Positions 7,360 to 7,786 of a stretch of 12,378 nucleotides of DNA are shown here, piece after piece; within the stretch, counting starts at the first letter, position 1, and every line of letters starts with the position of its first letter. Source of the stretch: a virus; the UHGV virus genome UHGV-1613228. The stretch is one strand, 5' to 3'. The translations under genes and the position numbers were made by a program. Under the pieces are notes generated by a model. That model worked only from the letters and a program-made list of their open reading frames with translations, made no database searches and was not told the origin of the DNA.

Positions 7360-7449
7360 ATCAATGACTCCGTACGCAATTAAATTATTACCAATTTAAC
7401 CACATATGATTTATTTATCGTAGGTAGTTGACATTTAACGCACAAATTA

Positions 7450-7464
7450 TTACCTTTCAGGTAA
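7450..7464. promoter_or_regulatory. Perfect inverted repeat TTACCT-TTC-AGGTAA, candidate operator
   Basis: 6-bp arms with a 3-bp spacer, seen directly. A TTGACA hexamer lies 17 bp upstream at 7428..7433. It sits in non-coding DNA between the portal operon and the tRNA. I could not find a convincing -10 element. Confidence 0.3.
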
Positions 7465-7786
7465 CCAAAGAGTTCATTCCGGTTACTAACCTGACTGGCT
7501 TGTCGTTAAATTGAACAGGTGGAGTGAGCTTTTATTTTGAGCAGTACGGCGTATGGCACATGCGCCGATAGCGGTCTGGATACGTTTAAGGGGCACCCTC
7601 CCTGGCTGTGGCAAACGAACCAGGTAGCCGGAATGTGCAAGTCGAGCGGTTTTATTCCGCGCACGGGGATTCACCATCCCGGCGATTCGGTGTGACGCCT
7701 CGGAAGAGACGAGGGTACAACGATGAGAGCATTTATGGAGCCGCGACAAAGTGTGGCGCCTTAACAGGCTAAGTGCTCTCAGCGTT

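Follow-up and report, generated by a model that had tools for sequence, protein, structure and literature searches.

The GOLLD and ROOL RNAs are large structured prophage RNAs of Firmicutes and of rumen or lake bacteria, which are often located beside tRNA genes and whose function is unknown. The CI RNA of P4 and the C4 RNA of P1 and P7 are antisense immunity RNAs of about 77-90 nucleotides (nt), cut by RNase P from operon leaders and directed to targets in the same operon. From the lytic T4-like phages two stable RNAs are known, C and D (species 1 and 2), of about 120-140 nt; they are co-transcribed and co-processed with the phage tRNAs, and their function is also unknown. The put RNA of phage HK022 has about 70 nt and two stem-loops, and it is encoded at two sites, putL and putR, downstream of the PL and PR promoters (PMC9378689). 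The present work deals with an element located in a stretch of viral DNA of 12,378 nt (virus genome UHGV-1613228, hereafter the window), which comes from a phage or prophage of the phiV10/epsilon15 type. An original prediction, made from the letters of this DNA, had pointed to about 400 nt of hairpin-rich sequence with few open reading frames (ORFs) upstream of a tRNA gene (7380-7786), and had proposed a divergent promoter and operator, a long tRNA precursor leader or a structured small RNA. It is concluded here with high confidence that this sequence belongs to a conserved, stand-alone gene for a structured RNA, of which the region 7380-7786 would be the front two-thirds, with the promoter, the operator and the main body.

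The evidence comes mainly from the comparison of homologous loci. The structured RNA extends over 245 nt (7546-7790), and its core, whose size is 150-180 nt across homologues, is built from five helices, a pseudoknot and a near-invariant 19-mer (Table 1). In a curated alignment of 48 diverse cores (A5), 96% of the cells form standard pairs, and 11 pairs, with 99 cells, have changed on both sides; this compensatory level was reached by none of 500 shuffles, and at most 14 cells were obtained when the partner was slid by 1-3 columns. The pseudoknot is paired in 100% of its cells, with a C:G to A:U double change in five sequences, and the inner part of P2, as well as P3, are hairpins that vary in sequence and length. 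A conserved U-G pair (48/48 sequences) and a conserved G-U pair (46/48) would turn into C-A mismatches if the other strand were the one in use, and the functional strand is therefore the plus one. These properties, covariation of helices beyond shuffled and slid controls together with strand-specific G-U pairs, are those of structured noncoding RNAs (ncRNAs) in general. The covariance model built from A5 (R1) matches the window at 7542-7716 with 140 bits (E = 1e-39) and gives scores of 110-160 bits for full-length matches. In an independent set of 98 metagenomic matches, 95.8% of the cells are paired and 183 are compensatory. An exact 19-mer was found in 254 of the 273 loci, also in loci fished with another pattern.

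The window itself agrees with this picture. When the sequence 7480-7790 is folded alone, the plus strand reaches -121.3 kcal/mol (z = -3.6; none of 100 shuffles folds as well), whereas the minus strand reaches -95.9 kcal/mol (z = -2.1). The G+C content rises from 27% at 7380-7465 to 58% at 7546-7790 (51% in the whole window), as had been noticed in the change from an AT-rich left end to GC-rich stem-loops. Two of those stem-loops had been named, GGGAT-tcacc-ATCCC (7666-7680) and CCTCG-gaagaga-CGAGG (7698-7714), and both correspond to conserved helices with compensatory changes in homologues. The homologue alignment, which the original prediction had recommended as a check, therefore speaks for a structured RNA; it was to be a small one, and the conserved unit proved to be about 590 nt long, reaching about 8050. 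The covariance scan, recommended as well, matched no family over the element. With Rfam 15 (4227 covariance models), only the tRNA passes the gathering threshold in the window, nothing is found on the plus strand within 7546-7786 when 7300-8100 is searched at E up to 10, and eight homologous loci gave tRNAs only, apart from C4 and isrK elsewhere in the loci. No description of the element was found in the literature searched (by sequence, and on put and antitermination, lambdoid phages without N, yfdP/yfdQ and structured-RNA surveys), and one may exist outside it.

The hypothetical proteins annotated over the element in mEp460 (mEp460_037), phiV10, TL-2011b and ZX5 could suggest that a protein-coding gene is what has been conserved, and the window contains a minus-strand ORF of 87 amino acids (aa) at 7486-7749. 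This ORF had been described as the only one of the region; it is the longest, and three more of 52-54 aa overlap it. Its product is rich in Arg, His and Cys as stated (22%; 11 R, 5 H, 3 C), and scans against Pfam and PHROG gave no match. A six-frame test of 48 homologues revealed no conserved reading frame: the best frame is open in 18 at most, indel lengths are not multiples of three and the spacings between anchors are even modulo 3, so the noncoding character proposed for the region holds. A DNA site (origin, pac or att) would be the other way to explain the conservation. The compensatory substitutions within helices and the strand-specific G-U pairs are an RNA signature and not one of double-stranded DNA, and there is no consistent adjacency to integrase, terminase-recognition or replication genes. 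Both possibilities are considered extremely improbable.

Table 1. Features of the RNA unit and of its surroundings in the window, with the cloverleaf helices of relatives that lack the tRNA
Feature	Position	Strand	Remarks
Portal gene	5459-7138	-	
Small ORF between portal gene and promoter region	7153-7359	-	phrog_831, E = 2e-36; conserved phage protein
AT-rich block upstream of the -35	7380-7427	none	Nearly identical in epsilon15-like relatives
Predicted sigma-70-type promoter	7428-7456	+	-35 TTGACA 7428-7433; 17-nt spacer; -10 TACCTT 7451-7456
Palindrome TTACCT-N3-AGGTAA	7450-7464	none	Overlaps the -10; unique exact match in the window
Lineage-specific 5' leader, about 80 nt	7465-7545	+	Common only to epsilon15-like relatives (alignment)
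Conserved RNA core, about 170 nt	7546-7716	+	Five helices, pseudoknot and near-invariant 19-mer
P1	7547-7555/7559-7567	+	CGGCGUAUG/CAUGCGCCG
P2	7575-7579/7620-7624	+	UCUGG/CCAGG
Near-invariant 19-mer	7623-7641	+	GGUAGCCGGAAUGUGCAAG
P3 hairpin	7646-7660	+	
P4	7666-7670/7676-7680	+	GGGAU/AUCCC
Pseudoknot	7672-7675/7689-7692	+	CACC (P4 loop) with GGUG
P5	7698-7702/7710-7714	+	CCUCG/CGAGG
3' hairpin domain	7717-7790	+	ACAAC-GAUGAGAGCA (7717-7731) pairs with UGCUCUCAGC-GUUGU (7774-7788); variable apex
tRNA-Arg(UCU)	7787-7863	+	ARAGORN; Rfam tRNA 71 bits; embedded in the conserved RNA unit
Small hairpin AUCACG-N9-CGUGAU	7866-7886	+	Directly after the tRNA/cloverleaf slot
Terminator T1	7907-7947	+	14-bp stem GGCGGUGAUGG...CUAUCACCGCC, then CUUUUU; listed by the terminator scan
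Conserved segment between terminators	7948-8022	+	Contains hairpin ACAGCAUGA...UCAUGCUGU (by eye)
Terminator T2, weaker	8023-8049	+	GCCCGCCGAUUCGCCGGGC then AUUUUUUU; conserved
Gp49-family gene	8062-8394	+	RefSeq 'Gp49 family protein'; no Pfam match; only phrog_27507 (unknown function)
Terminase genes	8485-9960 and 9957-10631	-	
Cloverleaf acceptor-like helix (tRNA-less relatives)			GUUGUGGUG pairs with CACCACAAC
Cloverleaf D-like hairpin (tRNA-less relatives)			GCGCA-GGCUGA-UGCGC
Cloverleaf variable arm (tRNA-less relatives)			Long
Cloverleaf T-like hairpin (tRNA-less relatives)			GCCGG-AGAUCAGCA-CCGGC

The spread of the element beyond the phiV10/epsilon15-like phages was missed by the original prediction. 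Searches with blastn revealed that the segment around 7546-7790 is common to otherwise unrelated phages with 70-82% identity, among them P1, P7, D6, SJ46 and RCS47, the lambdoid mEp460, cdtI, mEp390 and Ayreon, Stx2a, Stx2c and Stx2k phages, Klebsiella phages and one Stenotrophomonas phage; HK022 is not among the phages listed by this search. The exact 19-mer (GGTAGCCGGAATGTGCAAG) was found in 24 stretches from 12 enterobacterial genera in a collection with one genome per species and in at least 120 viral contigs, and a scan of metagenomes for another pattern, composed of the P1 helix and AGCGGTC, yielded at least 120 contigs. Of 5426 complete E. coli genomes, 1836 contain the 171-nt core, each at 1-4 places, and plasmids account for 554 of the places; among the E. 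coli matches listed, almost all lie under no annotated feature. Four loci that shared only the search pattern (L017, L187, L213 and L255) were excluded; L218 and L203 are truncated. Locus L017, one of the 24 stretches and from a metagenome-assembled genome (MAG) of Oscillospiraceae, has the exact 19-mer and nothing else in common, a chance match, and L029, from a Bacillota MAG, is a full copy of enterobacterial type on a 1.7-kb contig that looks like binning contamination. The neighbouring protein genes vary between contexts (portal and terminase, cI and yfdP/yfdQ, tciC and ban, or lysis genes), so no protein partner is conserved in cis, and the element moves between phage types as a module.

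The association with tRNA genes deserves particular attention, because one of the proposals had been a long tRNA precursor leader. In this explanation the RNA would have no function of its own and would only serve the transcription, folding or RNase P/RNase E processing of tRNA-Arg, as a long precursor leader and trailer. The 3' hairpin ends in the conserved GUUGUGG, inside which the tRNA-Arg starts, with its first four bases overlapped. Among 222 distinct contexts, 49 have tRNA-Arg(UCU) abutting the 3' hairpin and 20, which are P1-like, have tRNA-Ile2(CAU) ending about 10 nt before the P1 helix; RNA and tRNA are always on the same strand. The co-orientation and contact expected from a precursor leader are thus present. 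Nevertheless, ARAGORN detects no tRNA in 152 of the contexts, and the RNA is for this reason not merely a tRNA leader. The core is also far more conserved than the tRNA slot (near-invariant 19-mer; 110-160 bits), and in P1 it lies downstream, not upstream, of its tRNA. To our knowledge, ordinary tRNA leaders do not have 170-nt pseudoknotted domains with covariation. A service role for the tRNA is thus judged improbable, although canonical D and T arms are kept in the slot at a few loci (L202, L242 and L245).

In the relatives without a tRNA, the slot, recognised as homologous from aligned tails, folds as a cloverleaf-like four-way junction (Table 1). Its D-like and T-like arms covary at 7 pairs and 20 cells, a level attained by none of 500 shuffles; the invariance of the acceptor-like helix carries no weight, because this helix was fixed by the selection pattern. 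The 3' hairpin that precedes the slot is 45-134 nt long, also appears in the single-sequence fold of the window and ends in GTTGT(G/A)(G/A) in 125 of 168 distinct tails. By eye, the variants of its basal arm compensate (GAGAGCA/UGCUCUC, AAGAGCA/UGCUCUU, GAGCGCA/UGCGCUC and GAGAGUA/UACUCUC). It was also observed that the conserved GUUGU has two possible partners: the upstream ACAAC, with which it closes the 3' hairpin, and the downstream CACCACAAC, in whose place the window has the acceptor strand of the tRNA (window 7717-7721 and 7784-7790; mEp460 locus 3238-3246 and 3364-3372). These bases are thus claimed both by the 3' hairpin and by the acceptor stem of the cloverleaf or tRNA. A reading of UGCUCUU in the 3' hairpin and of the P5 loop GAAGAGA as boxA and boxB of a nut site, considered by eye, was rejected because the boxA-like stretch is base-paired with covariation.

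The small hairpin that follows the slot is present in most of 12 aligned tails, tRNA-less ones included, and is followed by GCUGUGUGUAGUC in many loci. T1 (-22.8 kcal/mol) has an architecture common to diverse loci, UUGGCGGU-[covarying arms]-ACCGCC-CUUUUUACA. T2 (-10.4 kcal/mol) folds no better than shuffles and is absent from a stricter terminator scan; similar terminators of 6-7 pairs are located about 100 nt after T1 in four other loci (L014, L013, L107 and L020), and T2 is probably the outer 3' end of the unit. A search by nhmmer with window 7864-8060 matched 85 loci, tRNA-less ones included, across the small hairpin, the spacer between T1 and T2, and T2, and the spacer and second terminator are conserved in the subfamily of the window. 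In general, 152 of 179 distinct contexts have a terminator-like hairpin in the 700 nt downstream, versus 72 of 179 on the antisense-strand control.

The order of promoter, pseudoknotted domain with invariant junctions, terminator and genes is that of a transcriptional riboswitch, in which the core would bind a small molecule or ion, set termination at T1/T2 and tie early expression to host physiology. An alternative pairing adds to this: the invariant GCACAU (7556-7561), in and next to the P1 loop, is complementary to AUGUGC (7633-7638) inside the 19-mer, and the pairing, proposed with its flanks by RNAalifold, is mutually exclusive with P1 and possible in 98% of cells. Both strands of it are invariant, so that covariation is not possible, and the local P1 was preferred to it, since it has no compensatory changes of its own and P1 has them (G-C in 24 sequences, A-U in 22). 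No Rfam riboswitch matches. From the 3' hairpin to the terminators there are 160-200 nt, which in the window include a whole tRNA. A classical attenuator was also considered and rejected, since the best duplex partners of the terminator arms are at inconsistent positions in 10 diverse loci, without an upstream antiterminator segment at any conserved place. The lack of a consistent antiterminator partner makes a riboswitch-type attenuator unlikely, and this explanation is regarded as slightly less probable still than the tRNA-service one.

Upstream of the core, the TTGACA that had been noticed in the AT-rich block forms the -35 of a putative promoter scoring 9.5 in our own promoter scan. Of 188 distinct contexts, 51% have a score of at least 9.5 in the 150 nt upstream (2% of control windows), and the commonest pair across contexts is the TTGACA/TACCTT of the window (42 contexts). 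The perfect palindrome TTACCT-ttc-AGGTAA, which had likewise been described, is the sole exact copy in the window, where about 0.2 matches would be expected by chance even with 2 mismatches allowed. It aligns with ATTACCTTTTAGGTAAT in epsilon15 (NC_004775.2), annotated as protein_bind 'repressor, lysogeny', and is probably a phage repressor operator. Promoter and palindrome are kept together in epsilon15-like relatives, which agrees with the proposed promoter and operator; for a divergent promoter serving the portal operon no evidence was found, and no further test was aimed at it. The block 7380-7427 is near-identical, by alignment, in epsilon15, Klebsiella phage ST512-KPC3phi13.3 and Citrobacter and Buttiauxella prophages, and a UP element, an IHF site or a second half-operator are possibilities for it. 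The leader after the palindrome folds into a hairpin (-22.9 kcal/mol, z = -2.2), and the corresponding leader has only 30-50 nt in the lambdoid relatives. Across loci, the upstream operator palindromes are of several different specificities.

The lambdoid loci have a similar organisation, in which a PL-like promoter and, before it, the cI terminator precede the element. In mEp460 (locus L002, from JQ182728.1) the order is the cI stop, the cI terminator, operators and promoter (2902-2953), the element (from 3003), a terminator with a 13-bp stem (3387-3431), a 101-nt hairpin and the first early-left ORF. There are two TTGC-N7-GCAA operators, a motif also present at OR, together with the promoter TTGCAT-17-TATCTT. 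Gene order and gap are the same in Stx2a_1447, phiSTEC1575-Stx2k and the O104:H4 prophage, and CI-like repressors (HTH_3 plus Peptidase_S24) are encoded immediately upstream in other genera (L010, L012 and L024). The 101-nt hairpin (L002 3427-3525), which directly follows the terminator of the unit, just before the first early-left ORF, is itself a near-perfect structure (-50.3 kcal/mol, z = -7.5) with an A-rich 5' arm and a U-rich 3' arm, and it could be a bidirectional terminator or a processing site.

Taking these data together, the best overall explanation is that of a self-contained plus-strand RNA gene expressed early, released by RNase P and acting in trans, to which we give about even confidence as a compromise estimate. 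The promoter, overlapped by the operator, would be shut off in the lysogen and active soon after infection or induction; from the placement behind a repressor-controlled promoter we infer that the RNA is off in the lysogen and among the first transcripts afterwards. The transcript would start at about 7463 and comprise the leader of about 80 nt, the core, the long hairpin, tRNA-Arg, the small hairpin and the two terminators, up to about 8050. RNase P would cut where the tRNA, or in the relatives the cloverleaf, begins, releasing a discrete and stable structured RNA of about 240-320 nt. By means of its invariant loops and junctions, this RNA may then act in trans on some conserved component of the enterobacterial hosts, for which the transcription, translation or RNA-processing machinery or a defence protein are candidates. 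Such an action would explain why loops and junctions, the 19-mer included, are near-invariant while helices drift. The unit is bracketed by promoter-like sequences and by conserved terminators; a trans-acting, host-directed RNA is, taken by itself, a tentative proposal that we rate as somewhat less probable than not.

Several observations weigh against this explanation. The trans-acting step is one that we infer. In P1 the core stands alone in the middle of the ban operon, without 3' hairpin or terminator module. The -10 of the window has 3 of 6 consensus bases, which is why the promoter is not listed by a stricter scan. The cloverleaf domain is not called as a tRNA by ARAGORN in the 152 contexts mentioned above, nor does the Rfam tRNA model match mEp460 L002 3225-3440 at E up to 10, so that cleavage by RNase P there is a guess. 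Finally, the lambdoid context fits a role in cis equally well: in mEp460, the Stx phages and the O104:H4 prophage the early-left genes are separated by the unit from the sole leftward promoter under operator control, no further operator site is closer to them, and the annotation of the whole mEp460 genome has no N gene.

The main rival explanation follows from that layout, with an early-operon leader acting in cis, whose nascent RNA would modify its own RNA polymerase or control termination, allowing read-through of the terminators into the early genes. It would be similar to HK022 put in function and unrelated to it in sequence and fold. Besides the lambdoid arrangement and the CI-like repressors upstream in other genera, the window has T1 and T2 between the element and a Gp49-family gene without an obvious promoter, and a precedent exists in putL, which lies just downstream of PL and is active without a phage protein (PMC9378689). 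The likeness to put is in location, as the ncRNA is directly downstream of a repressor-controlled early promoter and upstream of terminators in a lambdoid phage without annotated N; the window has the same order, with promoter and operator at 7428-7464 followed by T1. On the other hand, the core is a pseudoknotted five-helix domain of about 170 nt with further domains (170-245 nt in all) instead of about 70 nt and two stem-loops, and it is single-copy where HK022 has putL and putR: a search of the whole mEp460 genome with R1 yielded a single copy, as did 98 of 100 metagenomic loci, so a second put-like copy near PR was rejected. The new RNA is also found beside tRNAs, inside the P1 ban operon and between portal and terminase genes. 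Its terminators belong to the module, being conserved and in tandem, with stems of 13-15 bp, and in another system, that of pLS20, stems of at least 14 bp resist processive antitermination (PMC10325885). The P1 core is 2.3 kb from the promoter with no terminator nearby, the tRNA or cloverleaf flanks suggest excision as a discrete molecule, and the gene after the terminators in epsilon15-like phages is variable cargo. Considering both sides, a leader acting in cis is unlikely, but clearly the strongest of the rivals.

P1 (L003, NC_005856.1) has an intact core at 2997-3177 with 134.5 bits, and the 3' hairpin and cloverleaf are kept in some P1-like plasmids. This core occupies a 286-bp gap between tRNA-Ile2 (trnI) and ban, which is blank in a densely annotated record. 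In epsilon15 (L004, NC_004775.2; 2453-2552 and 2546-2637) a decayed copy was observed, which matches the model with 35 bits over the first 90 nt or so; there is no tRNA, about 130 nt are inserted after the operator, and on the opposite strand the record has an 'RNaseIII mRNA processing' site that overlaps the beginning of the remnant.

The tRNA-Arg(TCT) and the Gp49-family gene form a plus-strand island between the portal gene and small ORF on one side and the terminase genes on the other, all on the minus strand. Transcription of the late operon, on that strand, must cross the whole RNA unit antisense, and a further terminator-like hairpin is located at 8415-8434. The slot after the terminators is occupied elsewhere by a DUF2829 protein (Klebsiella phage ST512-KPC3phi13.3) or a 201-aa ORF (Citrobacter, L014), and it looks like a cargo position. 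The Gp49-family gene of the window was considered as DUF2829/Tad2-like and rejected, as it has no Pfam match and, in that slot, the DUF2829 annotation is limited to the Klebsiella phage gene.

The comparison with the remaining systems can now be made. Like GOLLD and ROOL, the new RNA is a large, elaborately folded phage ncRNA, often adjacent to tRNAs, and its location behind a repressor operator suggests expression in the lytic phase. It differs from them in its hosts (Enterobacteriaceae and one Stenotrophomonas phage), in a smaller core of about 170-250 nt and in having the tRNA or cloverleaf embedded within the unit, not merely nearby; the Rfam GOLLD and ROOL models do not match window 7300-8100 even at E up to 10. 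With P4 CI and P1 C4 it shares a leader origin, a structure, control by a repressor or immunity system and a probable release through tRNA-like features. Unlike in those systems, the C4 model has no match over the element, and in the 44.5 kb of mEp460 no reverse complement of the 19-mer was found apart from the element itself, for which reason an antisense regulator was rejected. In the same mEp460 locus, adjoining C4 (83.6 bits) and isrK (67 bits) RNAs were detected with Rfam at L002 706-793 and 818-894 on the minus strand of the locus, under a gene annotated as Rha/antirepressor in the early-right operon. This pair amounts to an RNA module like that of P1 immI in a lambdoid phage that also carries the new element. 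The resemblance to T4 RNAs C and D is that of stable ncRNAs tied to phage tRNAs, whereas the new family is found in temperate phages and mostly unlinked to a real tRNA. The element lacks the defining properties of each of these nearest systems, and its kind is that of a phage structured ncRNA.

As for the original prediction, its observation is confirmed and its interpretation partly supported. A wider proposal, towards which we lean a little less than evenly, is that the element represents an undescribed class of large multi-domain phage RNA, with pseudoknotted core, hairpin, tRNA or cloverleaf and tandem terminators, which would be the very first early transcript in many temperate enterobacterial phages, P1 and Stx phages among them, and would act as RNA on a host machine by a mechanism without known homologue. 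Candidates for this mechanism are the reprogramming of RNA polymerase and the mimicry or handling of tRNA against tRNA-directed defences.

In several records, the annotation has hypothetical proteins where there is an RNA gene. The element also gives an object that can be mutated, in its helices, pseudoknot and invariant nucleotides, for the question of the large tRNA-adjacent phage RNAs. If the proposal is true, a complex conserved RNA has been overlooked in phages that count among those studied best (P1, P7 and lambdoid, Stx and phiV10/epsilon15-like phages), as well as in about a third of the complete E. coli genomes. The position directly behind repressor operators suggests a very early product, which makes the RNA a candidate for a part in early gene control, host takeover or counter-defence, and in the Stx phages this early stage would bear on induction and toxin release.

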